From contig OY762654.1 in the NCBI GenBank assembly GCA_963666205.1, positions 1 through 64,000 on the forward strand: DNA of 64,000 nt, given 5' to 3'. The DNA is from Synergistales bacterium (GTDB lineage: Bacteria; Synergistota; Synergistia; Synergistales; JAFGMB01). How positions within the stretch are numbered: the stretch's first letter is position 1; the number at the start of each line of letters is the position of its first letter. The position numbers and the translations under genes are program-made. The notes beneath the pieces were generated by a model. It ran no database searches. It was not told the DNA's origin and saw nothing but the letters and a program-made list of their open reading frames with translations. Shown here piece by piece: positions 6,208 through 23,222 of this stretch.

Positions 6208-6263
6208 TAAAAAGGGAAAAACAGATCCCCCTTGATCAAGGGGGATCTGTTTTTCCCTTTTTA
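6208..6263. terminator. 56-bp perfect palindrome, probable terminator of the AOR operon (possibly bidirectional)
   Basis: TAAAAAGGGAAAAACAGATCCCCCTTGA followed directly by its exact reverse complement; overlaps the AOR stop codon. Confidence 0.8.
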
Positions 6264-8435
6264 GTCGATGAATCTATCCTCAGGTCTGGCTTTTTTCTTA
6301 ACTATATCAACCAGTTCCGGAAGGTCCATGCCTATTTCCCGGAGCTTTTCAAGAGTAGGTATTCCGTTTCTATCCCATCCTCTTTTGTTGTATACAACGT
6401 CAACAAGTTTTTCCCACTGTTTTTCCCGGGCAGATCTTAAAACAGCTATCTTTTCCTCCACAGAAAGTCCTTCTGGTTCAGTTCCAGTTTCTCGGAGTTC
6501 ATTATCATAATATTCAGATCTTGCTTCCCATTCATCCGGATATACTGGACCCATTGCCCTGTAAGGTATGTTATGGAATCCTCTAGTTCCTTTCCCAAGT
6601 CTGATCTGGAACAGGTGCTGGAAATTATAGACTCTTTCAGACATGAGTATTAACTCTTGTTTGTCGATATTCCTACCGGTAACAGCATTGAATATATCAA
6701 TATAATTCTGAACATGTTCAGGAACTTTTGCTGCTTCCTGAGGTGGATACTTGGTCATATTATCCGCAGGTTCGACGTCATTCCACGGAAGCTTACAGCC
6801 TCCCACCAGGGAGAACCAGGTTCTGAAAAGAGGGAAATAGTGAAGAGCTTCTGCCTTATCTTCGAAAGTGGGCAATTGTTTGTTAACCCTGTCCATAAAT
6901 ATCAGCCAGGCTTCATCATGCTGTGGTCCCTTCAGGGTCAGGAAGAATCCCCCCCACTGGGCAACTGATTCTTTGCAGACATACTCTGAAACCTCGACTC
7001 CCTGTCCTTCCATTCCAATATCACGCAGGTTATCGGCAGGAGCCCCGTATTTATTTTCAAAAACTCTTTTCATCTCTCTTATGCCTTTACTTACTTCATT
7101 GGCAAAGACATCTTTGCCTCCAGCCATTCGATGGATCAGTTCCATCAGGTCATTCATCATACCAAAATTAAGATCAAGTCCATTGGTTATATCTTTATTA
7201 AGAAAACCTTTTTCATAGCATTCACAGACGAAAGCTAAACCTGTACCAAGGGAAATGGTATCGAAGCCATAATGATCAGCGTAAAAATTTGCCTCAATGG
7301 TCCAGCCAGGGTCCATTATCCCGATATTTGGTCCAAGACTTGTGCTCGTTTCGTACTCAGGTCCATCTACGGTAACTATCTGACCGCGGCAGGGTCCAGT
7401 TTTTATCTCGAAATTGTCCACGCCCTTGGAACATGCCATTGAACATCCGTACCAGCATCCATCAGGTATTCCCTGGGTGAAGATCTCTTCATAAACATTC
7501 GAATGAATATTTGCTATATCTTTATGTTGGCCAAATTTAAAATTATGAGTAGGAAGGAGGTGATAATCATTCATGATTTCGTTAAGATGTGCTGTTCCAA
7601 CAGTCCGCATTCTCGCCTGTTTGGCATCGAGATCACAAATCTCCTTGTGGAGTTTGAGTCCTACCTGCTGCAAAATGCCATAATCTTTAACTCCTTGTTT
7701 TATTTCTGACCAATCTCGATTTCGAACCACCAGTGCAACGATCTTTTTATCCCTGAGAATGGTCCCACCGCCACCTCTTCCTGCCTGCTTCAATCTGGGT
7801 GTTTTCCTTCTAAGGTCATAAAAACTGGAGTTAAGACAGCCCCAGTAAGTATGTTCAGCAGCCTGGCCTGTAGACACAACCGAAATTGAACGTTTATCTT
7901 CTTCGCTTTTGGAAAAATGATCATGAAGGGCTTCAGTTACAGTATAGCTATTTATATCTTTGAAATCAGATTCAAGAAACTGAACTTTTCCGCTATCGCC
8001 ATCAATGAATATGATAATATTCTGATCTGATTTTCCCTGTATTTCCAAGGCATCCCATCCGGCAAACTTAAGAAGGGGGCCAAAATGTCCTCCAGCATTA
8101 CTGTCATAGGTCTGACCAGAAAGTGGAGAAATAAAAACCGCGTAAAATTTCCCCAATCCTGGATATTGTGTTATTCCACACAGGGGACCTCCTGAGATAA
8201 TTATCTCGTTCTCTGCGTCATCCCATCTGGTATTATCGTTTACAGCATCCCAGAGTAGCTTTAGTCCAAAACCTCTTCCCCCCGTAAATCTTTCCTTCAT
8301 CTCTTCGGTGACTTCTTTTTCAATACACTCATGGTTTTCTACGTTGATATAAAGAGTTTTACCCGTATAGCCTCTGAAAGGTATGGATTTTTCATATTTC
8401 CATTCTGAAAGAACTTTCATTTCCATTTCAGCCAT
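6261..8435 (-). CDS. Tungsten-dependent aldehyde:ferredoxin oxidoreductase (AOR/WOR family), long 724-aa form
   Basis: TGGRG, DSNAGG, AGRGGGG, CWYGCSMAC, GPEYET, D.YG.DTIS, C-terminal YNKRGWDRNGIPT. Confidence 0.9.
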   Translation of the reverse strand: MAEMEMKVLSEWKYEKSIPFRGYTGKTLYINVENHECIEKEVTEEMKERFTGGRGFGLKLLWDAVNDNTRWDDAENEIIISGGPLCGITQYPGLGKFYAVFISPLSGQTYDSNAGGHFGPLLKFAGWDALEIQGKSDQNIIIFIDGDSGKVQFLESDFKDINSYTVTEALHDHFSKSEEDKRSISVVSTGQAAEHTYWGCLNSSFYDLRRKTPRLKQAGRGGGGTILRDKKIVALVVRNRDWSEIKQGVKDYGILQQVGLKLHKEICDLDAKQARMRTVGTAHLNEIMNDYHLLPTHNFKFGQHKDIANIHSNVYEEIFTQGIPDGCWYGCSMACSKGVDNFEIKTGPCRGQIVTVDGPEYETSTSLGPNIGIMDPGWTIEANFYADHYGFDTISLGTGLAFVCECYEKGFLNKDITNGLDLNFGMMNDLMELIHRMAGGKDVFANEVSKGIREMKRVFENKYGAPADNLRDIGMEGQGVEVSEYVCKESVAQWGGFFLTLKGPQHDEAWLIFMDRVNKQLPTFEDKAEALHYFPLFRTWFSLVGGCKLPWNDVEPADNMTKYPPQEAAKVPEHVQNYIDIFNAVTGRNIDKQELILMSERVYNFQHLFQIRLGKGTRGFHNIPYRAMGPVYPDEWEARSEYYDNELRETGTEPEGLSVEEKIAVLRSAREKQWEKLVDVVYNKRGWDRNGIPTLEKLREIGMDLPELVDIVKKKARPEDRFID

Positions 8436-8466
8436 TTTAATACCCCCCGTTAAACAAAGATTTACT

Positions 8467-8853
8467 CTATTCTTCCACTATCTCCAGAGCCTGTGTAGGA
8501 CATCTTTTTGTGCAGGCCCCACAGGCAATACATTTGAAAGGTTCAACGCCCTTTATGGAATTAAAGAAAAGACTTGATGTCGGGCAAAAACCGACACACA
8601 TCATACAGCCTACGCATTTTTCCTTATCAAGCCGAACAATTCCCTTTGCATCCCTTGCCAAGGCCCCTACAGGACATATATCAATGCACTTGCCACACTG
8701 GTTGCACGCGTTGAGAGTAAAACCTTCTTCACTTTTTGACACTCTGATCCTTGACAGAATTTCTGATTTTTCTCTGAACCATAACTCTGAACATGTTTCC
8801 ATACATTGTTCACAACCAATACATCTCTCCGGATATGTCTTCAACCACTTCAA
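8467..8853 (-). CDS. Polyferredoxin (4x[4Fe-4S]) partner subunit of AOR
   Basis: Four CxxCxxCxxxC motifs; probable TTG start at 8853 behind a GGGGGG RBS (ORF track extends to 8868). Confidence 0.85.
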   Translation of the reverse strand: MKWLKTYPERCIGCEQCMETCSELWFREKSEILSRIRVSKSEEGFTLNACNQCGKCIDICPVGALARDAKGIVRLDKEKCVGCMMCVGFCPTSSLFFNSIKGVEPFKCIACGACTKRCPTQALEIVEE

Positions 8854-9092
8854 CTGAAAGCCCCCCATTCATCTCATGGTTTTTAAAAAACTGGAATACA
8901 ATAACTATCTCTAACATCCTAGTTAATATACATGAAAGCAATTGTCTTTTCCACAAAATAAGAACACAACTGCCCCATATCCTTAATGCCGGAAGTCGGG
9001 GAAATATTCCTATTGCCTCTATATCGTACAAAGAGTAAAATGGTCTTGTAGAATAATACAGTTTATTATCTAATAAGACAAGGAGTCTTGTA

Positions 9093-9887
9093 ATGAAAAA
9101 CAGTAATTCCAGTTATCTTATACAATCTCTTCTGACTTCCATTGATGTACTTGACTGTTTTTCAAAGGAAGAAAAAAATCTGGGAATAAGTGAGATAAGC
9201 CGAAAACTTGGTCTAAATAAAAGTCGAGTCCACAGAATTCTTCTGACCTTGGAAGGTCGGGGTATTGTGGTAAGGAATCCCGATACCATGAAATATCGTC
9301 TTGGGCTTAAACTCTTCCAGCTTGGTCACCTTGTGGAAGAACAGCTTGAAATAAGGCACTGTGCACATCCTTTTATGGAGAAACTTGCTCTTGAAACGGA
9401 GGAGACCATTAACCTAAATATTATCTATAACGGGAAAAGAATGAGTGTAAAGAAGATAGAGAGCCGGCATGAGATCAGGCAGGCAGTTGAGCTAGGGAAA
9501 TCGATCCCTATCCATTCGGGTGCTCCTGGAAAGGTTCTTATGGCTTATCTCCCGGTAGATTCCCTCAGGCAACTACTTGAGGAGAATGAACTTACAACCA
9601 TGGGTCCCAATACCATTACAGATGGAGATGACCTTCTCATAGAACTTTCGAGGATAAGAGATCAGGGCTATTCTATAAGCTTTGAGGAAACTTATCTTGG
9701 GGCTGTTTCCATTGCAGCACCTGTAAGGGACTTTTCCGGAAGTGTTATTGCAGCTCTGAGTGTTACTGGGCCTGTTTCAAGATTTTCAGATCAAAACATA
9801 AGCCGTTTCATTCCATTGGTCATAGGATCTGCCAATTCAATCTCAGGGGCCCTTGGATACCGTCTGGAAAAAGAAGAAATACAATAG
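9093..9887 (+). CDS. IclR-family transcriptional regulator
   Basis: HTH LGISEISRKLGLNKSRVHRILLTL, Y.LG, GAPGKVLMA, IRDQGY, SIAAPV..AALSVTGP. Confidence 0.92.
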   Translation: MKNSNSSYLIQSLLTSIDVLDCFSKEEKNLGISEISRKLGLNKSRVHRILLTLEGRGIVVRNPDTMKYRLGLKLFQLGHLVEEQLEIRHCAHPFMEKLALETEETINLNIIYNGKRMSVKKIESRHEIRQAVELGKSIPIHSGAPGKVLMAYLPVDSLRQLLEENELTTMGPNTITDGDDLLIELSRIRDQGYSISFEETYLGAVSIAAPVRDFSGSVIAALSVTGPVSRFSDQNISRFIPLVIGSANSISGALGYRLEKEEIQ

Positions 9888-9928
9888 CTCATTTAGATAA
9901 ATCATCAAATTAAAGGGGATTGATACAG

Positions 9929-10231
9929 TTGAAGACAGATCAGAGCAATGGTCAGGCGGGAACTCTGGAGTCTGGAGATATACTGGTCTTTATTGATCTT
10001 ACAGTGCAGGAAAAGGGGATCAGTATTGACCTGGATAGCCCTTCCATAGTGTCCTTCGGTAAGCAGATTATTTCTGTTATTAGAAACACACTTGATAATC
10101 TCGGTGTCCATGATGCCTATGTAAAGGCCCAGGACAGGGGGGCTCTTGACTGCACTATAAGTGCTCGTGTGGAAACTGCTGCAAGAAGGGCTCTTCATTA
10201 TCCAATCGAGGAGGCTGGAAGATGTCTCTAA
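9929..10231 (+). CDS. citD: Citrate lyase-type acyl carrier protein (gamma subunit)
   Basis: AGTLESGD prosthetic-group Ser motif, FGKQI, QDRGALDCTISARVETA; likely TTG start at 9929 (ORF track 9920). Confidence 0.88.
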   Translation: MKTDQSNGQAGTLESGDILVFIDLTVQEKGISIDLDSPSIVSFGKQIISVIRNTLDNLGVHDAYVKAQDRGALDCTISARVETAARRALHYPIEEAGRCL

Positions 10232-11103
10232 AACAGTTGAGGCGCACAGCGCTATATATTCCAGGTAACGATCCTTCAATGTTGTTGAATTCCGGAATCT
10301 TTGGGGCTGATTCAGTAGTTCTGGATCTTGAAGATGCTGTATCCATAACTGAAAAAGATGCAGCCCGGATATTGGTCAGGAATACCCTGGCATATGTAGA
10401 TTTTCGCGGTGCCGAAGTAGTGGTCAGAATAAATGCGCTTTCTACACCCTATGGTCTGGATGACCTGAAAAGTGTTGTTTCTCCACGGCTGGATGCCATA
10501 AGGCTGCCAAAATGCGAATATGCTCAGGATGTAATAACTGTGAGTGAGATACTTGATCAGATGGAAACAGAAAAGGGTATGGAAAAGGGAAAAATTAAGA
10601 TCATGCCCCTCATTGAATCTGCTCTTGGTTCTTATAATGCAGTGGAAATAGCCTGTGCAGACAGCAGAGTTTCTGCCATAAACTTCGGTGGTGAAGATTA
10701 TACTGCAGATATAGCTGCACAGAGAACAAGAGACGGTATGGAGCTTCTTGATATAAGAATGAAGATCCTACTGGCAGCAAGGATCGCCCACATTGATGCC
10801 CTTGATACTGTTTTCGGAAACGTAAATGATGAAGAGGGTCTTTTAGCAGAAACAAATCTTATCAAACAGTTGGGATTTGATGGCAAGTCGATAATCCACC
10901 CTCGACAGATCAAAACAATTCATAAAGTCTTTACACCGACAGAAAAAGAAATCGCAAAAGCCAGACGGATCGTCCAGGCACTGGAAGAAGCAGAAAAAAA
11001 GAAATCAGGAGTTGTTGCCCTTGATGGCAGAATGATCGATGCTCCTGTTGTAGCAAAGGCCAGAAGAGTCATTGCCTTTGCTGAAGCTATGGGTTTAGCT
11101 TAA
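10222..11103 (+). CDS. citE: Citryl-CoA/ACP lyase-type beta subunit
   Basis: RRTALYIPG, LDLEDAV, VRIN, LIES, FGGEDY, GFDGKSIIHPRQI, DGRMIDAP. Confidence 0.92.
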   Translation: MSLKQLRRTALYIPGNDPSMLLNSGIFGADSVVLDLEDAVSITEKDAARILVRNTLAYVDFRGAEVVVRINALSTPYGLDDLKSVVSPRLDAIRLPKCEYAQDVITVSEILDQMETEKGMEKGKIKIMPLIESALGSYNAVEIACADSRVSAINFGGEDYTADIAAQRTRDGMELLDIRMKILLAARIAHIDALDTVFGNVNDEEGLLAETNLIKQLGFDGKSIIHPRQIKTIHKVFTPTEKEIAKARRIVQALEEAEKKKSGVVALDGRMIDAPVVAKARRVIAFAEAMGLA

Positions 11104-11119
11104 AAGGAGGTCTGTCATT

Positions 11120-12661
11120 ATGTTAAATGCAGCGGGAAGAGTGATACCTGAATTTATTGAAGGGATAGGTTCACTAAAACCCTTTAAAGGGGCCTTTGCA
11201 AGGGTTCCTGATGGTAAAATGAAATCTCCCCTGATTCCACATGTTACCAGGGATACGGAAAAACTTATCCCTTCACTGAGGGATGCCATCCTTGCCACGG
11301 GCTTAAAGGATGGCATGACCATCTCCTTCCATCATCATCTTCGAAATGGTGACTTTGTCGTTGCTCTGGTTCTGGATCTTATAGCTGAAATGGGTTACAG
11401 GAACATAACACTGGCCCCCACTGCTCTTTTCCCTGTTCATAAATCCATCATAAAACATATAGAAAGTGGTGTAGTAAGAGCCATTCAGGGAAGTGTAAAC
11501 GGCCCTGTAGGGAAACTAGCTTCCCACGGAGGATTTGAGGTCCCTGTCCTTTTACGTTCCCATGGTGGACGTGCCCGAGCTATTGAAGCAGGAGATCTTT
11601 CTGTTGATGTTGCTTTTATTGCAGCTCCTTCAGCCGATCGTTACGGGAATCTTAATGGATCTGAGGGACAGTCAGCATGTGGATCTCTTGGATATTGTGT
11701 TGCAGATGCCATGTTTGCAGATAAGGTTGTAGCAATAACGGATAATCTGGTTCAATATCCTCTTTTCCCCATATCCATTCCACAAAACTATGTTGACTAT
11801 GTTGTAAAGATTGATCAGATAGGAGATCCTTCAGGTATTGTTTCAGGTACCCTGAAGGTAACCAGAGACCCCCTTCGGCTTCTAATAGCAGAAAATGCAG
11901 CAAAGGTAATAGATGCTTCCGGACTCATAGAAGATGGTTTTTCTCTTCAGACGGGCGCAGGTGGTATTTCTCTGGCTGTAGCCGATTACATAAGAGAAAT
12001 CATGAAAGAAAGGGATATCCGGGGGAGCTTCGGTTCGGGAGGGATTACCGCTTTCTTTGTCCAAATGTTGCAGGAAGGACTTTTTGAGACATTGCTGGAT
12101 GTCCAATCCTTTGATATGGAAGCTGTCCGATCATTGCGGGAAAACCCTAATCATGTCGAAATGAGCGCTTCATTTTATGCTAACCCCCACAATAAGGGAT
12201 GTGCTGTCAATCAACTGGATGCAGTTATCCTGGGAGCCACACAGGTGGATACCAATTTTAATGTCAATGTCAATACTGAATCTGATGGAGTCCTCCTTCA
12301 TGGCGTTGGTGGGCACATGGATACTGCTGCCGGTGCGAATCTGACAATTATTACAACTCCGCTTCTCCGAGGCAGACTTCCAATGGTAGTTGACGATGTT
12401 CTAACAGTCACCAGTCCTGGAGAAACTATTGATGTTGTAGTTACCGAGAGAGGAATAGCAGTTAATCCACAACGTGCTGAGCTCGAGGTAACCCTTAAAA
12501 GGGCTGGACTACCTGTGGTCAATATTCATGATCTGAAAAATGAAGCGTACAGAATATCAGGAAAGCCTGAAGATCCTGAATTTAAAGATAAGATCATCGG
12601 GGTTGTTGAGTATCGGGATGGTACGGTTATTGATGTGATACGGGAAATCAAAACCTGTTAA
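11120..12661 (+). CDS. citF: Citrate lyase-type alpha subunit (CoA/ACP transferase)
   Basis: TISFHHHLRNGD, RSHGGRARAI, QTGAGG, GGHMDTAAGA, EYRDGTVIDV. Confidence 0.92.
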   Translation: MLNAAGRVIPEFIEGIGSLKPFKGAFARVPDGKMKSPLIPHVTRDTEKLIPSLRDAILATGLKDGMTISFHHHLRNGDFVVALVLDLIAEMGYRNITLAPTALFPVHKSIIKHIESGVVRAIQGSVNGPVGKLASHGGFEVPVLLRSHGGRARAIEAGDLSVDVAFIAAPSADRYGNLNGSEGQSACGSLGYCVADAMFADKVVAITDNLVQYPLFPISIPQNYVDYVVKIDQIGDPSGIVSGTLKVTRDPLRLLIAENAAKVIDASGLIEDGFSLQTGAGGISLAVADYIREIMKERDIRGSFGSGGITAFFVQMLQEGLFETLLDVQSFDMEAVRSLRENPNHVEMSASFYANPHNKGCAVNQLDAVILGATQVDTNFNVNVNTESDGVLLHGVGGHMDTAAGANLTIITTPLLRGRLPMVVDDVLTVTSPGETIDVVVTERGIAVNPQRAELEVTLKRAGLPVVNIHDLKNEAYRISGKPEDPEFKDKIIGVVEYRDGTVIDVIREIKTC

Positions 12662-12706
12662 TAAAAGTGTTCATGATGGCAGCCATGGTTATGGAGGGGA
12701 ATCTTT

Positions 12707-13591
12707 TTGGATAGATCATATTCTCAGATATCTTGGGAAATAAGTGAAAAAGCTATTCGTGGTATGTTACTTGAAGTGGCATGTACCCCCAAACCCGGGC
12801 TCGTAGATCTTACAAATAATGGTGCTAATTGTGATATGGACTTTTTCCTTTTCTGTATGAGCTCAGCTGCTATATGCCAGGATTTCTATCGCTTTGCTTT
12901 GTTGGGCATCGAATCCAGATTGCCAAATGAGGAATTTCTTAAAACCCTTCGTCAACAAGGAATGGTCACTGAGAAAAGAATGTTCCGAGCGACGGATGGG
13001 GTCAATACTCAGAAAGGTCTTATCTTCATAATGGGTGTTATCTGTGCCGTTGCCGGGAGAATGATAATGAAAGGAATGCAATTGAGCGCGAATGCTCTTT
13101 CGAAAGAGATAAGAGCCATTGCTTCAGGTATTTGCGATAGAGAACTCTTTATTCTAGCTAAAAAAATGCCGGACAGAAATCTGACGAAAGGAGAAGAACT
13201 GTATCTGAAATATGGGGTCAGGGGTATAAGAGGTGAGGTGGAGGATGGTTTGCCATCTGTTGTAGATCATGGGCTGCCTGAAATGAGAGCGGGTCTTTCT
13301 CGAGGACTTACATTGAATGATTCTATGGTTAATGCTTTGCTCCGGATCATGTCTGTTTCTGCGGATACAAACGTCATATCCCGCTCCAATTTTTCAACCC
13401 TGAAGGAAAAGGTCCAGCCTATGGCGTCAGAGGCCCTGGAGTTGGGTGGTATTGAAACTGCTAAAGGAAGAGAGTCAATATTAAAAATGGATGAGTTGTT
13501 TATATCAGAAAACATCAACCCCGGAGGCTCAGCAGATCTTCTTGCTGCTACTGTTACCATCCACTTTCTTGAAAAGGCAGGAATTATCTAG
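12707..13591 (+). CDS. citG: Triphosphoribosyl-dephospho-CoA synthase
   Basis: EV..TPKPGLVD, T.GVNTQKG, YGVRGIRGE, DTN..SR, NPGGSADLLA. Confidence 0.92.
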   Translation: MDRSYSQISWEISEKAIRGMLLEVACTPKPGLVDLTNNGANCDMDFFLFCMSSAAICQDFYRFALLGIESRLPNEEFLKTLRQQGMVTEKRMFRATDGVNTQKGLIFIMGVICAVAGRMIMKGMQLSANALSKEIRAIASGICDRELFILAKKMPDRNLTKGEELYLKYGVRGIRGEVEDGLPSVVDHGLPEMRAGLSRGLTLNDSMVNALLRIMSVSADTNVISRSNFSTLKEKVQPMASEALELGGIETAKGRESILKMDELFISENINPGGSADLLAATVTIHFLEKAGII

Positions 13592-13660
13592 GGAGAAGTA
13601 TTCTTACCAGAAGAGCGACTTAAGGCGTAAAGATAATCTAATCTGATGGAGGTGTTATGA

Positions 13661-14215
13661 ATGAACGAAAAGATTAGGGAAGCGATACCTGAAATTGGTT
13701 GGATTGTTGACAAGACTCTGCAGGAGAAAGTGGTCTCAACAATAGAAGATGGACTCAGGTCGGGGGGCTGGGAAGTCGAGGATATGGATAAGATGCCCTT
13801 TACCCTGTTGATTCCTGATTGTCCCGCCTCGCTGCTTGTTCACACAAGGTCCATCGTTCAAATGTGCAGACATATCGGAGACGTATACAACCCGATATAC
13901 CATAACCAGGGAGATTTTACCCTGGACAGGGATGTACTGATCGCTGGAGCTATTCTTCATGATGTAGGCAAGCTCGTTGAAATGGAGTTCAAGGACGGTA
14001 AGTATGTCAAATCCCAATATGGGAAGGACCTACGACATCCCTTTTCAGGTGCGGTACTAGCTGCCAGAAATGGTCTATCAAGCGATATATGTCACATCAT
14101 AGCAACTCATGCCGGGGAAGGTAATGGCAGACATCGCAGTCCTGAGGCTGTTGTTGTGCATCATGTGGATTTTATCAATTTCGAGAGCATCAAGTCTCAC
14201 CTGGGACTTCTTTAG
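13661..14215 (+). CDS. HD-domain metal-dependent phosphohydrolase
   Basis: H...AGAILHDVGK...RHPFSG...HIIATH...HHVD; RBS GGAGGTG. Confidence 0.85.
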   Translation: MNEKIREAIPEIGWIVDKTLQEKVVSTIEDGLRSGGWEVEDMDKMPFTLLIPDCPASLLVHTRSIVQMCRHIGDVYNPIYHNQGDFTLDRDVLIAGAILHDVGKLVEMEFKDGKYVKSQYGKDLRHPFSGAVLAARNGLSSDICHIIATHAGEGNGRHRSPEAVVVHHVDFINFESIKSHLGLL

Positions 14216-14271
14216 AACTTAACGTAGTCATTGTTTCGAAAATTTTCATGAACGACTCAGGAGGGGTTTAA

Positions 14272-15552: not shown

Positions 15553-15567
15553 AGGAGTGGGAAAGTT

Positions 15568-16080
15568 ATGGGAAGTTCTTTGATAAAAGGAAGAGCCTGG
15601 GTTTTCGGCGATGATGTTGATACTGATCTGATCTATCATAATAAATATCTGGCAGTGACAGACCCTGCGGAAATGCCTAAATATGCATTTGAATATTACC
15701 CCGGAAAAGAAAACTTTGCCAGAGAAGTGAAGGATGGAGATGTAGTAGTTGCAGGGAAAAACTTCGGATGTGGATCAAGTAGGGAACATGCTGTCTACTG
15801 CCTTAAGGAGGGAGGAATTCCTGTGGTCCTCGCGGAATCCTTCTCCAGAATCTATTACCGGAATGCTGTAAACAATGGTTATCCGGTACTTGTTGCTCCA
15901 GGAATCTCTTCTAAATTCAAGGATGGAGATGACATAGAAGTTAACCTTGATACCGGTGAAATCAAAAATCTGAGTTCCGGAGAGAAGATACATGGCGATG
16001 CTGTTACGGACCTTGAAAAAGAAATAATGGCCCATGGTGGTCTTATTCAGTATATCAAGGCCCATGCCGTGAAGGAATAG
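15568..16080 (+). CDS. Aconitase-family hydratase small subunit (LeuD/HacB-like), copy 1
   Basis: FGDDVDTD, AGKNFGCGSSREHA, SFSRIYYRN, HGGLI. Confidence 0.88.
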   Translation: MGSSLIKGRAWVFGDDVDTDLIYHNKYLAVTDPAEMPKYAFEYYPGKENFAREVKDGDVVVAGKNFGCGSSREHAVYCLKEGGIPVVLAESFSRIYYRNAVNNGYPVLVAPGISSKFKDGDDIEVNLDTGEIKNLSSGEKIHGDAVTDLEKEIMAHGGLIQYIKAHAVKE

Positions 16081-16092
16081 AGGTGGAGGAGG

Positions 16093-17352
16093 ATGGGTAA
16101 GACTTTTGCCGAAAAAGTTCTTGGCAAGGCAACTGGAAATGAAGTCTCTGCAGGTCAGATAGTCACAGTTGAACCCCATTTTTGTATGAGTCATGATAAT
16201 GCTGCGCCAATTTCAAAGATCTTCAAGGAAATTGGCGTCAATAAAGTGTGGGACAGCAGCAGACTGGTATTTATCCTTGACCATGCTATCCCGGCTCCGA
16301 CTGATAAACATGCACTGAATCACAAGGTTATTAGAGGATTTGTCAAAGATCAGGGGATCGAGCATTTTTACGATGTCATGAGCAATGGCGGTGTATGTCA
16401 TCAGGTTATGTGTGAAAAGGGGTATGCTCTGCCAGGACTTGTAATTGTTGGTAGTGATAGTCACACCTGTACTTATGGAGCTTTTGGTGCCTTCTCAACA
16501 GGCATTGGCCGAACTGAAATGGCGGCTACGTGGGCTACAGGAAAGATCTGGTTTAAAGTTCCGGACTCAATGAAGATAAGCGTGAATGGAACCTTTGGAA
16601 GGGGCGTCAGTGCAAAGGATCTGATCCTGAGGATTATGGGTGATATCCATTCAGATGGAGCAGACTATATGTCTGTTGAATTTCATGGTAAGGCTATTGA
16701 AGCTATGACCCTCGGATCCAGAATGACCCTATGTAATCTTGGTATAGAAATGGGAGCAAAAAATGCGGTCTGTCCGCCTGATACTAAGGTTCTGAACTTC
16801 ATTAAAGACAAGGCTAAGTCTGATAAATGGGAGTCAATATGGGCAGATGAAGATGCCTACTATGAAAAAGTACTTGAATATGATCTGGCAAATATCGAAC
16901 CAGGTGTAGCCAAGCCTCATACTGTGGATAACTATTCTCCCATTACAGAAGTTAAGGGTACATCCATAGATCAGGCTTTTCTGGGGACATGTACTAACGG
17001 TCGACTTCAGGATCTTGAGGAAGCAGCTGAGGTGCTTGAAGGAGGAAAAGTTGCTGTTAGAACTATTGTAATACCTGCTTCCTGGGAGATTTACAGAAAA
17101 GCAATGTCAAAAGGCATAATGGATATCCTTCTTGATGCAGGATGTATACTTGCTAACCCTGGTTGTGGTCCATGCATGGGCAATCATGAAGGGATACTTG
17201 CTCCAGGCGAAACCTGCATTTCAACGGCGAACAGGAATTTCCAAGGAAGAATGGGAAATAAGGAGAGCTATATCTACCTTGCCAGCCCGGCAACAGTAGC
17301 CGCTTCTGCCCTGAAGGGTGAAATAACTGATCCCAGGGAGGTGCTTGTTTAA
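16093..17352 (+). CDS. Aconitase-family hydratase large subunit, copy 2 (homoaconitase-like)
   Basis: CMSHDN, LDH, GVCHQV, GSDSHT, LGTCTNGR, CGPC, STANRNF.GRMG. Confidence 0.88.
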   Translation: MGKTFAEKVLGKATGNEVSAGQIVTVEPHFCMSHDNAAPISKIFKEIGVNKVWDSSRLVFILDHAIPAPTDKHALNHKVIRGFVKDQGIEHFYDVMSNGGVCHQVMCEKGYALPGLVIVGSDSHTCTYGAFGAFSTGIGRTEMAATWATGKIWFKVPDSMKISVNGTFGRGVSAKDLILRIMGDIHSDGADYMSVEFHGKAIEAMTLGSRMTLCNLGIEMGAKNAVCPPDTKVLNFIKDKAKSDKWESIWADEDAYYEKVLEYDLANIEPGVAKPHTVDNYSPITEVKGTSIDQAFLGTCTNGRLQDLEEAAEVLEGGKVAVRTIVIPASWEIYRKAMSKGIMDILLDAGCILANPGCGPCMGNHEGILAPGETCISTANRNFQGRMGNKESYIYLASPATVAASALKGEITDPREVLV

Positions 17353-17849
17353 TGAAAGTTAAAGGAAAGGTCTGGAAATATGGAGATGATGTGAACACTG
17401 ATGTCATTTTCCCGGGGAAATACACATATACTGTTCTCGATCCCGCAGAAATGGGCAAATATGCTTTGGAGGACCTTGATCCCGAGTTTGCACGAAAAGC
17501 TCAACCTGGTGATGTGATTGTAGCAGGAAAGAACTGGGGATGTGGTTCATCCAGAGAACAGGCTGCAACCTGTCTGACATCCTTAAAAGTCGGAGCAGTT
17601 GTAGCCAGGAGTTTTGCCCGTATATTCTACCGCAATGCAATTAACCAGGGACTACCTGTTATTCAGTCCCCTGCTGCGGTAGCTTCCATTGAAGCTGGTG
17701 AGCAAATCGAAATAGATTTTGAGAATGGACTCATCAGGACAGATCAGGGTAAGGAATTTGCTTTTGCACCCATTCCAGAATATGTCAGGGGAATACTTCA
17801 GGATGGTGGCCTTGTTGAACATATAAGAAAAAGCCTGGGGCTGGATTGA
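17352..17849 (+). CDS. Aconitase-family hydratase small subunit, copy 2 (homoaconitase-like)
   Basis: NTDVIFPGKYTY, NWGCGSSREQAA, SFARIFYRN; TAATG coupling to the large subunit. Confidence 0.88.
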   Translation: MKVKGKVWKYGDDVNTDVIFPGKYTYTVLDPAEMGKYALEDLDPEFARKAQPGDVIVAGKNWGCGSSREQAATCLTSLKVGAVVARSFARIFYRNAINQGLPVIQSPAAVASIEAGEQIEIDFENGLIRTDQGKEFAFAPIPEYVRGILQDGGLVEHIRKSLGLD

Positions 17850-17925
17850 TCTACTATGGTTATTCAGAAGTTAGATCATTAAAGGTTATCAGCCATTAAT
17901 ACATGGGACTAAGGAGGGGATATAA

Positions 17926-19050
17926 ATGGGGACAAACAGGAACGTTCTTGAAATTGCCGTAAAAAAAGACAGATACAAGGTTGCCTACATTCCTGGTGAC
18001 GATTCCGGTTTCGATGTAATGGAAGCCTGTATGGAGGTTATGGAAGCACTGAATCCACCCATAGATTGGGTCCGTGCAGATGCAGGGTGGTGCATGTGGG
18101 AGAAATATGGGAATACAGTTCCAGACGAAACTAAAGAAATTCTCCAGAATACTGATGCTGCTTTGATGGCAGCTATAACATCGAAACCTGGGGTCAAGGG
18201 TTTTAAATCTGCCATTCTTCAAATGAGACAGATATTTGACCTTTATATTAATCTCAGACCTGCAAAATCGATGCCTGGAGTACCTTCATATCGTGATGAT
18301 ATAGACATGGTCCTGTTCAGGGAAAATACAGAAGGTCTCTATTCAGCTGTAGAATGGCGTCCATTTCCCGAAGAACTTTTATCAATACATCCCAATCTTG
18401 AAAGATACAGGGGGAAAAAGGAACTTGCAGCTTCACTTCGCGTTTTTTCGTATGAAGGTTGCGAGAGGATTATCAGAGCGGCTTTCGAGTATGCGCAAAG
18501 TACAGGAAGAAATAAAGTCACGGTTGTAGAGAAGCCCAATGTAATCAGAGCTACAGGTGGTCTATTTCTTGATGTTGCAAAGGAAGTCTGTAAGGACTAT
18601 CCGGGGGTTGAATGGAATATGGAGAATGTAGATGCTACATGTATGTGGCTTATCAAAAATCCTCAGGATTACGAAGTAGTCGTTACCACAAATATGTTTG
18701 GAGATATAGTGTCTGATGAAGCTTCCCAGCTTGTCGGAGGTATGGGAGTCACAGCCAGTGGAAATATTGGTGAAAACTATGCACTTATGGAACCTTGTCA
18801 TGGTTCAGCCCCAAAATATGCAGGGCAGTACAAGCTTAATCCTGTAGCAATGCTTAATGCTGCTGGAATGCTCCTGGATTACCTCGGACTTGAAAAATAT
18901 ACTCACCGAATGGAAAAGGCAATGTTCGATGTTCTTAGGGAGGGAAAGGTCCTTACCTATGACCTGTTGAGGGATAAAGGTGTTGCTGATTGGGAAACAA
19001 AGGCCTCTTCGACCCTTGATATGGCAAGGGAAATCGTAAAAAGACTCTAA
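17926..19050 (+). CDS. Beta-decarboxylating dehydrogenase (isocitrate/isopropylmalate/homoisocitrate family), probably NADP(H)-dependent homoisocitrate dehydrogenase
   Basis: SAILQMRQIFDLYINLRP, RENTEGLY, EKPNV, NMFGDIVSD, EPCHGSAPKYAG, TYDLLR. Confidence 0.85.
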   Translation: MGTNRNVLEIAVKKDRYKVAYIPGDDSGFDVMEACMEVMEALNPPIDWVRADAGWCMWEKYGNTVPDETKEILQNTDAALMAAITSKPGVKGFKSAILQMRQIFDLYINLRPAKSMPGVPSYRDDIDMVLFRENTEGLYSAVEWRPFPEELLSIHPNLERYRGKKELAASLRVFSYEGCERIIRAAFEYAQSTGRNKVTVVEKPNVIRATGGLFLDVAKEVCKDYPGVEWNMENVDATCMWLIKNPQDYEVVVTTNMFGDIVSDEASQLVGGMGVTASGNIGENYALMEPCHGSAPKYAGQYKLNPVAMLNAAGMLLDYLGLEKYTHRMEKAMFDVLREGKVLTYDLLRDKGVADWETKASSTLDMAREIVKRL

Positions 19051-19054
19051 CAGC

Positions 19055-19099
19055 AAAAAGCTGCGGGCAAGGGGTATACCCCTTGCCCGCAGCTTTTTT
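19055..19099 (+). terminator. Rho-independent terminator (44-bp perfect palindrome plus T tract)
   Basis: AAAAAGCTGCGGGCAAGGGGTA|TACCCCTTGCCCGCAGCTTTTT immediately after the dehydrogenase stop. Confidence 0.88.
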
Positions 19100-19238
19100 G
19101 AAAAATTATATTCTCTCTACCATATTTTCCCGGCATCAATAAAGATAACGAGAAAACCTGTTTCCAGGTCACTTTTGGTGGTTACCATATTATAAATGAA
19201 AGGGTGATCTCTTCCTCGTCAGAATAACCTGAAGATTG

Positions 19239-19268
19239 TAGACATGAAATCGTGAAATAGAATATAAT
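19239..19268 (+). promoter_or_regulatory. Putative sigma70 promoter for nhaC
   Basis: TAGACA-18 nt-TATAAT, about 100 nt upstream of the ATG. Confidence 0.4.
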
Positions 19269-19370
19269 CAAAACTGGATGAGGTTTAAATTAACCTTGAT
19301 CAATGCGGGTCAGTCGTTGTGGGGGGTAGTTCCAGGTTGGAGAGAATCTAATTCTTGAGGAGGAAGCAAA

Positions 19371-20903
19371 ATGGCAGAAGAAAAAGTAGGTAGAAAACCG
19401 AGTTTTGCCGAAGCGTTGCTGGTCCTGGTCGTTATTGCTGTTGTTATTAGTGGAAGCGTTCTGAAATTAGGTCTTGATGCTCATGTACCGATTTTCCTTT
19501 GTGCTGTGTTTACCGCGTTCATGGGTATTTTTGTTTTGAAATATTCATGGAAAAAGATTGAAAATGGGATGATCAATGGAATTATGATCGCTATGCAGGC
19601 AATCCTGATCCTTACCATAGTCGGTTCTATGATCGGTGCCTGGGTACAGAGTGGAGTAGTCCCGTCACTTATCTATTATGGTCTGGATCTCCTTTCTCCG
19701 GGGTTTTTCCTTCTCGCGACACTTCTGGTATGTTCCATAGTTTCTCTTGCTACCGGAAGTTCCTGGACCACATCAGGTACAGTTGGTATTGCTATGATGG
19801 GTATCGCTGCCGGACTTGGCATCCCTGCTCATGTTACAGCCGGATTTATCATCTCGGGTGCTTATTTTGGTGATAAGATGTCTCCCCTTTCAGATACTAC
19901 AAATCTGGCACCTGCAGTTGCCGGTAATGACCTTTTTGACCACATAAGGGCCATGCTCTGGACGACAGGCCCTACCTATATCATTGTCGCAGTAATTGCA
20001 GGATTTATGGGTATGAAATATGCCGGTGGTGCACTTGATGCTTCAAAGATATCCCTCATCCAACAGGTTATGCAGGCTGAATTTCATGTAAGTCTTCTTG
20101 GTTTTGTACCCCCGGTTCTTGTTATTATCATGGCAACTGCAAAGGTCCCAGCCATACCCGGGCTTATAATTGGAATGCTTGCCGGTTCGGTTATGTCTCT
20201 TTTCCAGGGAGTTGGTCTTGCCGATGTCATGGGTGCCCTTCACTATGGTTATGAGACGAGTATCGCAAATGCGGTAGCAGAAGCGGGTAGCATGGATGCT
20301 GTAACTGAAGCGCTGAAAGGTGTGGCACTCGTAGGAGATAACATCAGTCTTGATATGGTCCATGAAGTGGGGAGCCTCCTCGCAGATCTTCTAACAAGAG
20401 GTGGACTGGATGGGATGATGTGGACAATCTCCCTGATCCTTCTGGCCCTGGCTCTTGGCGGTATCATGGAAACCTGCGGATTTCTTGAAGTCCTCCTTGA
20501 GAAAATCCTGAAAATGGTTACGACAGTAGGAGGACTTGTTACATCTGTTATCGCCTCCTGTGTGTTCTCCAACCTGTTCCTCGGCGATCAGTATCTTGCA
20601 ATTGTTATGCCTGGAAGACTTTTCAAGACAGGTTTTGAGAATTTTGAATACAAGGGTAAGAAGGGACTTGCGCCAAGGATGCTTTCACGAAGCCTTGAAG
20701 ATGCTGGTACCCTTACTTCGGCTCTGGTTCCCTGGAATACCTGTGGAGCTTACCAGTCCAGTGTCCTTGGTGTTCATCCCTTCGCTTATGCTCCTTATGC
20801 TTTCCTTAACTGGCTGAATCCACTTGTAGCGATTACCATTACTTATCTGGGAATAGGTGTTTTCTGGAAAGAAGACATGGAGAACAATAAAGAGGAATCC
20901 TGA
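19371..20903 (+). CDS. nhaC: NhaC-family Na+/H+ antiporter / amino-acid transporter
   Basis: Polytopic membrane protein with TGSSWTT.GT.G, SGAYFGDKMSPLSDTTNLA, GDQYLAI, LEDAGT..S.LVPWN. Confidence 0.88.
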   Translation: MAEEKVGRKPSFAEALLVLVVIAVVISGSVLKLGLDAHVPIFLCAVFTAFMGIFVLKYSWKKIENGMINGIMIAMQAILILTIVGSMIGAWVQSGVVPSLIYYGLDLLSPGFFLLATLLVCSIVSLATGSSWTTSGTVGIAMMGIAAGLGIPAHVTAGFIISGAYFGDKMSPLSDTTNLAPAVAGNDLFDHIRAMLWTTGPTYIIVAVIAGFMGMKYAGGALDASKISLIQQVMQAEFHVSLLGFVPPVLVIIMATAKVPAIPGLIIGMLAGSVMSLFQGVGLADVMGALHYGYETSIANAVAEAGSMDAVTEALKGVALVGDNISLDMVHEVGSLLADLLTRGGLDGMMWTISLILLALALGGIMETCGFLEVLLEKILKMVTTVGGLVTSVIASCVFSNLFLGDQYLAIVMPGRLFKTGFENFEYKGKKGLAPRMLSRSLEDAGTLTSALVPWNTCGAYQSSVLGVHPFAYAPYAFLNWLNPLVAITITYLGIGVFWKEDMENNKEES

Positions 20904-20914
20904 TACTTATTAAC

Positions 20915-20956
20915 AAGCAGAGAAGGACAGGGAACTCCCTGTTCTTCTCTGCTTTT
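20915..20956 (+). terminator. Stem-loop after nhaC
   Basis: AAGCAGAGAAGGACAGGG-loop-CCCTGTTCTTCTCTGCTT followed by TT. Confidence 0.7.
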
Positions 20957-20968
20957 GAGGAGACTGAC

Positions 20969-21400
20969 ATGCCTGAGAAATTAACAACAACTGTGGGATC
21001 CCCCCTCCCCAAAGGGATGAAGTCCCTTTCTTTAGCAATAGGCCTGATAATAATTTCTAGCGGCCTTTACCAGTTTTTACATGGCAGTAATGGAGCGTTT
21101 ACTTATATTGGCGTAGGCTTTGTCTGCATTGCCTGTTGTTCTTACAATAAAGCCTTCTCTGTCTCTTCTGAGGGTATAGTGAGAGAGCAGCGCATACTGG
21201 GAAGAGCTTACAAGGAAGTTTTACCATGGGGAGATGTTAAATCTGTCAGTTTTGCATTTAGAGGTGACAAGCTCATGGCCTTATTCGAAATAGGGCTGAA
21301 GGGGTGGCGTGTCCTTTTTTCACGAGATGCAGAACTTCGCTTAAGAAATATCATATCTGAAAATCGCCCTGACATCCAAGTTGAAGTCTTGCAGAAATAG
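20969..21400 (+). CDS. Hypothetical membrane protein (two N-terminal TM helices, small soluble C-terminal domain)
   Basis: 143-aa ORF with RBS GAGGAG and two hydrophobic segments. Confidence 0.65.
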   Translation: MPEKLTTTVGSPLPKGMKSLSLAIGLIIISSGLYQFLHGSNGAFTYIGVGFVCIACCSYNKAFSVSSEGIVREQRILGRAYKEVLPWGDVKSVSFAFRGDKLMALFEIGLKGWRVLFSRDAELRLRNIISENRPDIQVEVLQK

Positions 21401-21562
21401 GATGCTCTTCCATCCCGTTATTTTCGGGTAACCCTTTCAGTAACAACTGTTCAACATCCCTAACTTAAGTAAAAGGAAGGGGGCTGTAGGTTGATATTGA
21501 AATAGTGCTGTTAAGTAGTGAGGGGAAAGTAGCTAGCAGACCAACAAGGAGGCAGATAGAAA

Positions 21563-22924
21563 ATGACCGAACATTGTTCTTCCTTTTCAATTCCACCCAA
21601 AGAAGTTTTTTCAACAATAGCTGAATGGATGCTGAGAGATGGTTTTGACATAGTTATCGATATGGAAAAATCCAGAGGGAGCCATATCGTTGATGCTGCT
21701 ACAGGCGATGCATGGCTTGACTTCTATACGTTTTTTGCTTCAGCACCCTTTGGTATGAATCATCCCAAGGTCGACAATGAAGAATTCAAGGAAAAGATTT
21801 ATCGTGCAGCAATAAACAAAGTAGCTAATTCGGATATATATACTCAGGAAATGGCAGAATTTGTTCATACTTTTGGTGAAGTTGCCATGCCAGAAGGGTT
21901 TAAGCATCTTTTCCTGATCGATTATGGAACATTAGCAGTAGAAAATGCTCTTAAAGTTGCCATGGATTGGAAAGTAAGAAGACTTCTAGCAGCTGGTAAG
22001 GTCAATAAAGGAGATGCAATTCGGGGGAAAAGGGGAACAAAGGTGATTTACTTCAATGAAGCTTTTCATGGAAGAAGTGGATATACCCTTAGCTTGACTA
22101 ATACCCATGATCCAAATAAGCATCAGTATTTTGCCAAGTTCAATGAGTGGATCAAGGTTTTGAATCCCAGAATATATTGGCCCTTGGAAGATAATCTCAA
22201 TATGGTAAAGTGGGCTGAGCTCCAATCGCTTAAACAGATCCAACAGGCTATAGAGGATAATCCTGATGATATCTGTGCCATGATCATTGAAACGATCCAG
22301 GGAGAAGGCGGAGATAATCAATTCAGGAAAGAATTTTTCCAGAGTCTGCGGAAAATCTGTGACGAAAATGAAATACTTCTGATATTTGATGAAGTTCAGT
22401 GTGGGATGGGTATTACCGGTAAGATGTGGGCCTGGGAGCATTATGGAGTTAAACCCGATATCTTTGCCTTCGGTAAGAAAGCGCAGATATGTGGCATAGT
22501 TGCAGGGCCAAGGATAGATGAAGTAGAGGGAAACTGCTGGGTTACTTCCAGTCGGATCAATTCTACATGGGGCGGAAGTGTTGTAGATATGGTCAGATCC
22601 CAAAGATTTCTCGAGATATACAGGGATGAAAATATTCTTGATTATGTAGCAAATACTGTTGGACCTGCCCTTTATAAGGGACTTCTTGAACTGCAGAAAG
22701 AATTTCCAATCCTGCAGAATGTAAGGGGAAAGGGGCTTATGTGCGCCTACGATCTTCCTGATAATGAAACCCGCAATAAACTTCTGAAGCTTCTTCATGC
22801 TCAGAAAATGCTTATTTTACCCTGTGGAACTCTATCAATACGTTACAGACCTGCTCTGAATGTTCCCCTTGAAGATATTGCCAGGGGTATGGACATTACC
22901 AGAGAGGCTCTAAAGAAGATCTAA
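21563..22924 (+). CDS. lat: L-lysine 6-transaminase (class III PLP aminotransferase)
   Basis: AVENALKVAMDWK, FHGRSGYTLSLTNT, IQGEGGD, FDEVQCG, FGKK, SSRINSTWGG match the LAT subfamily. Confidence 0.88.
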   Translation: MTEHCSSFSIPPKEVFSTIAEWMLRDGFDIVIDMEKSRGSHIVDAATGDAWLDFYTFFASAPFGMNHPKVDNEEFKEKIYRAAINKVANSDIYTQEMAEFVHTFGEVAMPEGFKHLFLIDYGTLAVENALKVAMDWKVRRLLAAGKVNKGDAIRGKRGTKVIYFNEAFHGRSGYTLSLTNTHDPNKHQYFAKFNEWIKVLNPRIYWPLEDNLNMVKWAELQSLKQIQQAIEDNPDDICAMIIETIQGEGGDNQFRKEFFQSLRKICDENEILLIFDEVQCGMGITGKMWAWEHYGVKPDIFAFGKKAQICGIVAGPRIDEVEGNCWVTSSRINSTWGGSVVDMVRSQRFLEIYRDENILDYVANTVGPALYKGLLELQKEFPILQNVRGKGLMCAYDLPDNETRNKLLKLLHAQKMLILPCGTLSIRYRPALNVPLEDIARGMDITREALKKI

Positions 22925-23173: not shown

Positions 23174-23187
23174 TTAATAGTTATCTG

Positions 23188-23222
23188 AAAGGGGATGTCG
23201 TTTAAATGACATCCCCTTTTTT
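23188..23222 (+). terminator. Rho-independent terminator after tRNA-Val
   Basis: AAAGGGGATGTC...GACATCCCCTTTTTT. Confidence 0.85.

Follow-up and report, generated by a model that had tools for sequence, protein, structure and literature searches.

We analysed a gene island at positions 6261-22924 of a 64,000-nucleotide stretch of DNA from a Synergistales bacterium (assembly GCA_963666205.1, contig OY762654.1). This stretch, hereafter the window, makes up the first 64 kb of a chromosome that is complete at 2.95 Mb. At the centre of the island lies an operon encoding an HD-fold protein, two aconitase-type hydratases, a beta-decarboxylating dehydrogenase and the three subunits of a citrate lyase-type enzyme (CitDEF). 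This HD-hydratase-dehydrogenase-CitDEF module is a real, conserved operon unit of the phylum Synergistota. Comparisons of sequence and gene order tie it, putatively, to lysine-derived carbon. The best single explanation, which we advance tentatively, is a reverse-aminoadipate route in which 2-oxoadipate and CO2 would be converted, via homoisocitrate and homocitrate, to 2-oxoglutarate and acetate.

Conservation of the operon in Synergistota

Genes were called from a list of open reading frames (ORFs), and families were assigned by Pfam and NCBIfam profile searches with curated cut-offs. Every gene named for this island in an initial annotation of the window was recovered at its position. The operon lies on the forward strand and is headed by an IclR-family regulator (9093-9887; HTH_IclR and IclR_C). 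The lyase genes follow: a CitD-type acyl carrier protein (ACP), the gamma subunit (9920-10231; TIGR01608, 84.8 above the cut-off of 63.5); a divergent CitE-type beta subunit, the acyl-ACP oxoacid lyase (10222-11103; HpcH_HpaI, 2.3e-65; TIGR01588, 377.9 below 443.4); and a CitF-type alpha subunit, the acetyl-ACP:hydroxyacid transferase (11120-12661; TIGR01584, 660.3 above 501.45). Next comes CitG, the triphosphoribosyl-dephospho-CoA synthase for the prosthetic group (12707-13591; Pfam CitG, 1.5e-72; TIGR03125, 268.2, slightly below 272.3). The remaining genes encode an HD-fold metal protein of 184 aa (13661-14215; HD domain, 1.3e-11), hydratase pair 1 (L1, 14272-15552, and S1, 15568-16080; Aconitase and Aconitase_C; hacA_fam, 427.6 above 385.7), hydratase pair 2 (L2, 16093-17352, and S2, 17352-17849; hacA_fam, 554.1; HacA_Meth, 491 below 550) and the dehydrogenase (17926-19050; Iso_dh, 1.5e-86; best NCBIfam model AksF2, 339 below 540). 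Gaps computed from the ORF ends range only from -10 to 77 bp between the IclR and dehydrogenase genes, in agreement with the tight operon first described. The absence from the window of a homocitrate or isopropylmalate synthase and of an oxaloacetate decarboxylase was likewise confirmed: none of the nine HMGL-like (synthase-type) matches of the genome falls inside it, nor does either of the two OAD-beta matches, which are located at 118 kb and 705 kb.

The operon was compared across 268 Synergistota genomes, and 40 loci around HD matches were sampled for gene order. CitF proved a poor marker, the full module being present in 2 of 80 genome loci fetched with it (L003 and L006). It is 52-62% identical to ordinary citrate lyases of many anaerobes and was therefore dropped in favour of the HD protein. 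The latter is the best marker of the module and, in the sampled loci of the phylum, was always adjacent to hydratase genes. Strong HD matches were obtained in 100 of the 268 genomes. The order HD-L1-S1-L2-S2-DH (DH, dehydrogenase) was kept in 30 of the 40 sampled loci, which establishes the operon as a genuine unit, and CitE-CitF lay directly downstream as well in 25. The usual regulator in the other families of the phylum is of the GntR/FCD type, where the window has IclR. In the window's family (f1) the lyase genes stand upstream of HD together with CitG and IclR, as opposed to downstream elsewhere. Outside f1, the neighbours were unrelated and gave no clue to the substrate (betaine ABC transporter, rhodanese, uridine kinase, helicase, PGM, UDP-glucose dehydrogenase). 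Given the order conserved in the sampled loci and these unrelated flanks, we consider the module a self-contained conserved operon. One locus of family f7 (L137, genome G152) has a divergent second L2/S2-like pair ahead of HD and no dehydrogenase gene, in a genome without L-lysine 6-transaminase (LAT).

In a FastTree phylogeny of 122 CitF sequences, the f1 CitF was sister to the other HD-linked CitF of the phylum, within a phylum clade with a support of 91. It was not nested within the Bacillota citrate lyases and differs from these in belonging to the HD-linked clade, with a weakly supported basal split. The HD family itself is compact, with 134 cluster representatives at E<=1e-30 among 1.84 billion. 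Six residues are invariant (H61, H100, D101, H126, H150 and E153), and the predicted model has a pLDDT of 94. A fold search with this model returned generic HD folds only, the nearest being the HD domain of YhaM (TM 0.73), and no function follows from it.

Association with genes of lysine metabolism

The operon is flanked in the window by genes for LAT and for a protein of the aldehyde:ferredoxin oxidoreductase (AOR) family. The LAT gene (21563-22924, forward strand) encodes a class-III aminotransferase scoring above the L-lysine 6-transaminase equivalog cut-off (TIGR03251, 568.1 against 520.8). Its closest solved structure is the characterised LAT of M. tuberculosis (2cin, 386 bits), followed by 4-aminobutyrate aminotransferase (162) and ornithine aminotransferase (79). 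It can thus be assigned to the LAT family, with an activity predicted from sequence. The residues that we take to be Arg170, Glu243, Lys300 and Arg422 are conserved in the alignment with 2cin. The AOR gene (6261-8435, reverse strand) encodes 724 aa with both AFOR_N (1.6e-47) and AFOR_C (5.9e-87), and it scores below the YdhV and GAPOR equivalog cut-offs.

Across the phylum, 92 genomes have both the module and LAT, 8 the module only, 28 LAT only and 140 neither. These counts ignore kinship and overstate the case, related genomes being non-independent and two large families lacking both features. A similar pattern was obtained inside a single family, f8, where the corresponding counts are 53, 3, 9 and 14 and where several genera lack both.

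Within f1, gene orders resembling that of the window were recovered in two further genomes, AOR-Fd-IclR-citDEFG-HD...DH-NhaC-bPH-LAT in G165 (Fd, ferredoxin) and AOR-IclR-citDEFG-HD... up to the contig end in G166. A genome of a sister genus without the HD module, G163, has the order ProC-AOR-CitG-LAT (L177, 2488-8391), ProC being a pyrroline-5-carboxylate (P5C) reductase, with AOR and LAT 1.5 kb apart and a lone CitG between them. This arrangement looks like the scar of a lost module, and we therefore reconstructed the ancestral f1 layout as AOR-[module]-LAT.

Further evidence came from metagenomes. A scan with the HD alignment gave 493 relatives, of which 80 were kept. Among these, 48 loci span 6 kb or more, and in 36 of the 48 a LeuC-type hydratase adjoins HD, mostly of the L2/S2 type and often with the dehydrogenase. 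Nine contigs (L222, L225, L228, L231, L235, L237, L242, L248 and L250), counted as one lineage, independent of the phylum, because of their 83-97% mutual identity, carry the operon GntR-AtuA-DUF4387-HD-L2-S2-DH-PrpD, in which a PrpD-family gene replaces hydratase pair 1. Five of these contigs continue beyond PrpD, and in each of the five the following gene is lysine-related. Saccharopine-dehydrogenase-family genes take this place in four (two each in L248 and L250, partial in L235 and L225), and L222 has a LAT 54% identical to that of the window, followed by a lysine 2,3-aminomutase (E 3e-169 to 2a5h) and by an M20 peptidase. Two different routes to aminoadipate semialdehyde fill the same slot behind the same core.

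The operon of this lineage has no CitDEF, and its AtuA/DUF4387 pair takes the position in which one would expect a C-C lyase or an activating enzyme. Other contigs combine the core with other C-C enzymes, either an ATP-grasp protein with a citrate-binding domain (L232 and L246) or CitEF upstream. In the Synergistota genome G167, about 3.5 kb upstream of the module, there is also a gene that resembles saccharopine dehydrogenase and is 44% identical to that of the metagenome lineage (L127, 5215-6528); it was not counted, being a single case with other genes intervening.

Substrate clues in the dehydrogenase and the hydratases

The closest solved relatives of the dehydrogenase are an NAD-dependent isocitrate dehydrogenase (IDH; 6lky, 249 bits) and the homoisocitrate dehydrogenase (HICDH) of T. 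thermophilus (3asj/1x0l, 238 bits). Scores with the IDH/HICDH group (238-250 bits) contrast with those of the isopropylmalate dehydrogenases (IPMDHs), at most 178. In the alignment, the dehydrogenase has Leu at the position of T. thermophilus HICDH Arg85, and at -4 it has Ile in place of the Asn of the aligned isocitrate dehydrogenases. Across the phylum the motif GFKSAILQMRQ hardly varies, and Ser(-6), Ile(-4) and Leu/Val(-3) before the conserved Arg are common to the phylum and the metagenome lineage. We take the roles of the Arg85 position and of the -4 Asn in substrate choice to be those described by Miyazaki and colleagues in 2003 and in work on the E. coli isocitrate dehydrogenase. The substitution R85V reportedly abolishes the use of isocitrate and retains that of homoisocitrate, which would argue against isocitrate.

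The small-subunit loop of the methanogen homoaconitase (MJ1271, 2pkp) reads YLRT, with Arg26 and Thr27 reportedly detailed by Jeyakanthan and colleagues in 2010. The corresponding loop is YLAV in S1 of the window, YLAET in S1 of most of the phylum, YTYTV in S2 and YLVT in the genome's own LeuD. The S2 loop, GKYTYT, has a one-residue insertion that is kept in HD-linked pairs of other lineages, including the metagenome lineage. The best solved relative of S1 is the small subunit of the MJ isopropylmalate/citramalate isomerase (3vba), and that of S2 is a P. horikoshii small subunit (1v7l). The latter protein, according to passages of PMC7308503 citing Lombo 2004, is able to replace the Thermus homoaconitase small subunit, and the same passages give the loop a role in substrate recognition. 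According to Fazius et al. (PMC3556520), the isomerisation of homocitrate to homoisocitrate takes two separate hydratases in fungi and Thermus, homoaconitases only interconverting homoaconitate and homoisocitrate, and aconitase dehydrating homocitrate. The presence of two conserved hydro-lyases, and the replacement of L1/S1 by PrpD, fit this two-enzyme scheme.

The proposed route

The island would be a catabolic unit for lysine-derived carbon, with substrates and direction of flux that we infer as follows. LAT, a clear member of its family, would presumably turn lysine into 2-aminoadipate semialdehyde, and this might be oxidised to 2-aminoadipate, perhaps by AOR with ferredoxin. An aminotransferase encoded outside the island would yield 2-oxoadipate. 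The dehydrogenase would then reductively carboxylate 2-oxoadipate with CO2 and NAD(P)H, putatively NADPH, to homoisocitrate. Hydratase pair 2 would dehydrate homoisocitrate to cis-homoaconitate and pair 1 would hydrate the latter to homocitrate, so that the module would be the first half of the aminoadipate pathway run backwards. Finally, the ACP-dependent CitDEF-type lyase would cleave homocitrate to acetate and 2-oxoglutarate, and the 2-oxoglutarate could be reused as the amino acceptor of LAT. As the initial annotation had surmised, this route appears to be new, no description of it or of a homocitrate lyase having been found in our literature searches, which left subscription journals and supplementary files outside their reach; the papers retrieved on lysine fermentation in Synergistota were, judged by title and abstract, surveys of microbiomes.

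Weighing the route against its alternatives

A number of observations weigh against the reverse-aminoadipate route. The genomes with LAT only include the entire families f3 and f9, and others have the module only. LAT adjoins the module in 1 of the 40 sampled loci, from the same genus as the window, and an AOR orthologue does so in 2, both from f1; elsewhere the LAT context across the phylum is one of housekeeping genes (truA, mreB, a CxxCxxCC gene, LAT, DUF3084, GNAT, metK) that give no clue to the substrate. AOR orthologues, with 58-72% identity, are present in 117 of the 268 genomes, 41 of which lack the module, and 24 module genomes have none. The role of AOR is therefore the weakest link of the route, a weak case drawn from adjacency within one family. 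The cross-phylum support comes from a single metagenome lineage. The step from aminoadipate to oxoadipate is, as already remarked in the initial annotation, not clearly encoded, and no aminoadipate aminotransferase was identified in the island.

The hydratases and the dehydrogenase add to these points, as they match broad subfamily models and pass no homoaconitase or homoisocitrate dehydrogenase equivalog. With the homoaconitase models HacA_Meth, HacB_Meth and PRK14023, L1 (352) and L2 (491) remain below 550, and S1 (165.7) and S2 (171.8) below 230. Both small subunits lack the Arg-Thr of the methanogen loop. The sequence clues thus do not prove C7 substrates, nor do they settle the substrate.

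The interpretation given in the initial annotation was partly supported. Its two hydratase steps agree with the need for two enzymes in PMC3556520, but not with the methanogen homoaconitase loop, which neither small subunit has. Its expectation that lat and AOR would travel with the operon, the failure of which it took as counting against lysine, holds genome-wide for LAT (92 of the 100 genomes with the module) and fails in part for synteny, confined to f1. Its interpretation as lysine catabolism is favoured by LAT co-occurrence, the G163 remnant and the metagenome lineage, and disfavoured by the lack of synteny outside f1 and by the missing homoaconitase loop.

The alternative that survives best, which we nevertheless regard as rather unlikely, is one carbon shorter. 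2-Oxoglutarate would be converted to isocitrate and citrate, and a true citrate lyase would release acetate and oxaloacetate in a glutamate-family fermentation. The inputs would be glutamate, or ornithine, proline or arginine via glutamate semialdehyde, with LAT acting on ornithine-type substrates and AOR on glutamate semialdehyde. This scheme is in line with CitF, the sole CitF of the genome, passing the citrate-lyase equivalog, with the presence elsewhere in the genome of CitX (1166082-1166567) and CitC (1168297-1169253), away from the operon, and with the two OAD-beta genes; CitE, which is below its equivalog cut-off, argues against it. Genome searches found no citrate synthase, glutamate mutase (E) or 2-hydroxyglutaryl-CoA dehydratase, the only Iso_dh members found are the dehydrogenase and a LeuB-like gene, and no fused AcnA/AcnB-type aconitase was found among the six LeuC-like loci (by tblastn, no aconitase family model being searched). 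These absences favour the shorter scheme and count against the C7 route, as the module could then serve 2-oxoglutarate or citrate metabolism. Glutamate mutase, considered as a counterpart of the module, was set aside as uninformative, since it occurs in only 5 of the 268 genomes and its absence here says little.

A second LAT copy, 79% identical to the first, lies in a reverse-strand run with an OTCace carbamoyltransferase and a carbamate-kinase-type gene, divergent from a GntR regulator (L154, 9202-12618; genome 1.910-1.914 Mb). This context suggests that LAT-family enzymes here may also take ornithine- or putrescine-type amines. The NhaC-family transporter of the window (19371-20903, forward strand; TIGR00931, 442.6 above 370) resembles the model of the NhaC-type arginine/ornithine antiporter ArcD (384, below 650). 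We therefore kept ornithine-type substrates, and a C5-C6 version of the pathway, in play; both findings weigh against lysine, and the P5C reductase gene beside AOR in the G163 remnant also favours the shorter scheme. On the other side, the island LAT scores far higher with the solved LAT than with ornithine aminotransferase, and the metagenome core is followed by saccharopine-dehydrogenase genes or by LAT with lysine 2,3-aminomutase. Two hydratases are conserved, yet one aconitase would suffice for citrate isomerisation. The dehydrogenase speaks for isocitrate by its NAD-dependent IDH relatives, but against it by the missing Asn at -4 and the Leu at the Arg85 position, if these residues have the roles assumed above.

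A different substrate class, a 2-hydroxy or 2-oxo acid with an uncharged side chain, would involve citramalate, beta-methylmalate and 2-oxobutyrate, or compounds of the isopropylmalate or dimethylmalate type, and LAT and AOR would lie nearby through chance in the gene order of a single family. We consider this improbable. The YLAV loop of S1 and its MJ isomerase relative look like the hydrophobic type, and the Leu of the dehydrogenase is presumably equivalent to Leu91 of the T. thermophilus IPMDH. Citramalate lyase is known as a CitDEF-like ACP enzyme, and 38 or 39 of the 40 loci show no LAT/AOR synteny. The genome has six LeuCD-like pairs and contains other LeuCD-plus-lyase sets, among them one at 1.813 Mb where IclR, a LeuCD-like pair and a lyase of the phosphoenolpyruvate mutase/isocitrate lyase family stand together (L153, 6272-14789; 1.812-1.821 Mb); this set looks like a dimethylmalate dehydratase and lyase. 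The dehydrogenase, however, groups with IDH/HICDH and not with the IPMDHs, a separate leuCDBA cluster holds one of the six pairs with the typical YLVT loop in its small subunit, and the Glu of S1 in most of the phylum (YLAET) is unfit for a hydrophobic pocket. Moreover, the co-occurrence with LAT and the lysine genes after the related operon would be left unexplained, and shortening such oxo acids would bring no obvious energetic gain. The L153 set is divergent from genes for a TctCBA tricarboxylate transporter and for a paralogue of hydratase pair 2 (71% and 58% identical).

An extension of the C7 route, in our judgement also quite unlikely, would be iterative chain shortening, the methanogen 2-oxoacid elongation cycle reversed. 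2-Oxoadipate would give 2-oxoglutarate and acetate, 2-oxoglutarate would in turn give oxaloacetate and acetate, and the HD protein would be a new enzyme of the route. Lysine, along with glutamate, ornithine and proline, could in this way yield acetate and pyruvate in a fermentation that needs neither B12 mutases nor radical dehydratases.

We find it very improbable that the module works in the biosynthetic direction, as an unusual entry into 2-oxoacid chain elongation that would lead from 2-oxoglutarate to 2-oxoadipate and on to lysine or a cofactor. Homocitrate would in that case be made by the CitDEF-type enzyme or by a synthase whose gene lies elsewhere. The hydratase and dehydrogenase families are best known from biosynthesis, and the nine HMGL-like genes could supply a synthase; at none of the 40 loci, however, does a synthase gene accompany or neighbour the operon. 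The genome has lysA (456.8, above the cut-off of 297.9), which points to the diaminopimelate route, so that a biosynthetic aminoadipate route is not needed. Citrate lyases of the ACP type liberate free acetate and are not known to act as synthases, and IclR- or GntR-led operons with a neighbouring transporter would be typical of catabolism. We thus read lysA, the IclR/GntR regulators and the acetate-releasing type of the C-C lyase as signs of a putative catabolic direction. A plain citrate-fermentation operon was rejected as the whole explanation, because the lyase shares its operon, and its conservation, with the hydratases, the dehydrogenase and the HD protein.

Comparison with known systems

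The island shares with the upper alpha-aminoadipate pathway of T. thermophilus and fungi the hydratase and beta-decarboxylating dehydrogenase families, T. thermophilus HICDH being among the closest solved relatives of its dehydrogenase, as well as the use of two separate hydro-lyases (PMC3556520). It differs by having a CitDEF-type ACP lyase in place of homocitrate synthase, an extra HD protein and a proposed reverse direction that would be carboxylating and acetate-releasing. Its hydratases are both of the split LeuCD type, with loops unlike that of the characterised homoaconitase and no equivalog passed. The AksA/AksD-E/AksF system of methanogens (coenzyme B) acts on a homologous tricarboxylate series and provides the best models for the dehydrogenase (AksF2) and L2 (HacA_Meth). 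In contrast to it, all scores of the island are below the cut-offs, the small subunits have no YLRT, and the context is catabolic, with a lyase where the methanogens have the AksA synthase.

The likeness to the CitDEF citrate lyases of Klebsiella, E. coli and lactic acid bacteria includes the gamma-beta-alpha order, with the three subunit genes adjacent, and the activation genes, of which CitG is part of the operon while CitX and CitC are encoded elsewhere; it does not extend to equivalog scores for all subunits, as CitE fails. Unlike citrate lyase operons, that of the island has no oxaloacetate decarboxylase or citrate carrier and includes the two hydratases, the dehydrogenase and the HD protein.

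LAT-initiated lysine catabolism via piperideine-6-carboxylate (P6C) to 2-aminoadipate, as in Flavobacterium, Streptomyces and Mycobacterium, uses the same LAT family, the closest member being that of M. tuberculosis. The known route employs an NAD-dependent P6C/aminoadipate-semialdehyde dehydrogenase, whereas the island has none adjacent and has AOR as a neighbour; the fate of 2-aminoadipate would be new. Finally, the methylcitrate cycle (PrpD, aconitase and PrpB) follows the same logic of a dehydratase and a separate hydratase, then a C-C lyase acting on a substituted citrate. The cycle uses a lyase of another family and other substrates, and its direction is not the one proposed here; the module of the island adds a beta-decarboxylating dehydrogenase.

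Other genes of the island and of the genome

The left boundary of the island is a strong bidirectional terminator hairpin at 6213-6258, with a 20-bp stem, 10 GC pairs and T-runs on both strands, and the right boundary is a strong forward-strand terminator hairpin at 23187-23220 with a 15-bp stem and a T-run. An addition to the initial gene list is a poly-[4Fe-4S] ferredoxin-like protein (8467-8868, reverse strand; Fer4 family matches in four stretches), codirectional with AOR across a 31-bp gap. The 321-bp gap between the dehydrogenase and NhaC genes holds a promoter-like site (19239-19268, 11/12 matches). Between NhaC and LAT lies a 143-aa bPH-like protein (20969-21400, forward strand) with a weak bPH_7 match (24.9, below the cut-off of 25) and no NCBIfam match.

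Upstream of AOR stand a DAO-family FAD oxidoreductase (622-1767), a Pyr_redox_2 protein (2124-3227), two small ORFs (3234-3746 and 3746-4027) and a periplasmic amino-acid-type binding protein (4308-5489). We take this set to resemble the archaeal proline/pipecolate dehydrogenase complexes, and such a complex would feed the P5C/P6C semialdehyde pool. About 4 kb downstream of LAT, beyond NAD(P)HX repair and TsaB-type genes, there is a match to a 2-oxoacid:ferredoxin oxidoreductase alpha subunit (POR_N and PFOR_II, 26936-28159), followed by three ORFs up to 31055; 2-oxoglutarate or 2-oxoadipate could be its substrate.

Elsewhere in the genome, CitC ligase, a second CitD-type ACP, a GT9-like protein of 416 aa and CitX form one run behind a TRAP transporter, far from CitEF (L158, 8059-14383; 1.166-1.172 Mb). 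Another locus (L159, 4483-10250; 1.882-1.888 Mb) has a GntR regulator divergent from an HMGL-like synthase-type gene, a second NhaC-family transporter (38% identical), a class I/II aminotransferase and DUF169, and appears to be another amino-acid/2-oxoacid unit. Only two Aldedh genes were found, both far from the island, one of them generic (470 aa), and there is one KamA-type (lysine 2,3-aminomutase) gene (1038484-1039759).

Contigs from RNA libraries of marine-sediment metatranscriptomes (four runs, two studies) cover AOR, HD through the dehydrogenase, NhaC, bPH and LAT with 95-99% identity. The IclR region (about 8770-9960) has little or no cover in three of the four runs, and the contigs of two runs end near 19045. 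Such contigs, in which DNA carry-over is possible, cannot rank expression or show induction; they are compatible with transcription of the island in nature.

Implications

Anaerobic lysine breakdown is known to proceed by the 2,3-aminomutase fermentation or via glutaryl-CoA. The reverse-aminoadipate route, if true, would be a third, oxygen-independent one, in which 2-oxoadipate would be carboxylated and acetate split off to leave 2-oxoglutarate. It would also explain what an operon carried by about one third of Synergistota genomes does, along with its relatives in other phyla. The citrate lyase family would gain a member that cleaves homocitrate, and the small, conserved HD protein would be set in a context for the first time. 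Should the shorter-chain alternative be the correct one, the operon would still represent an undescribed route of glutamate-family fermentation.

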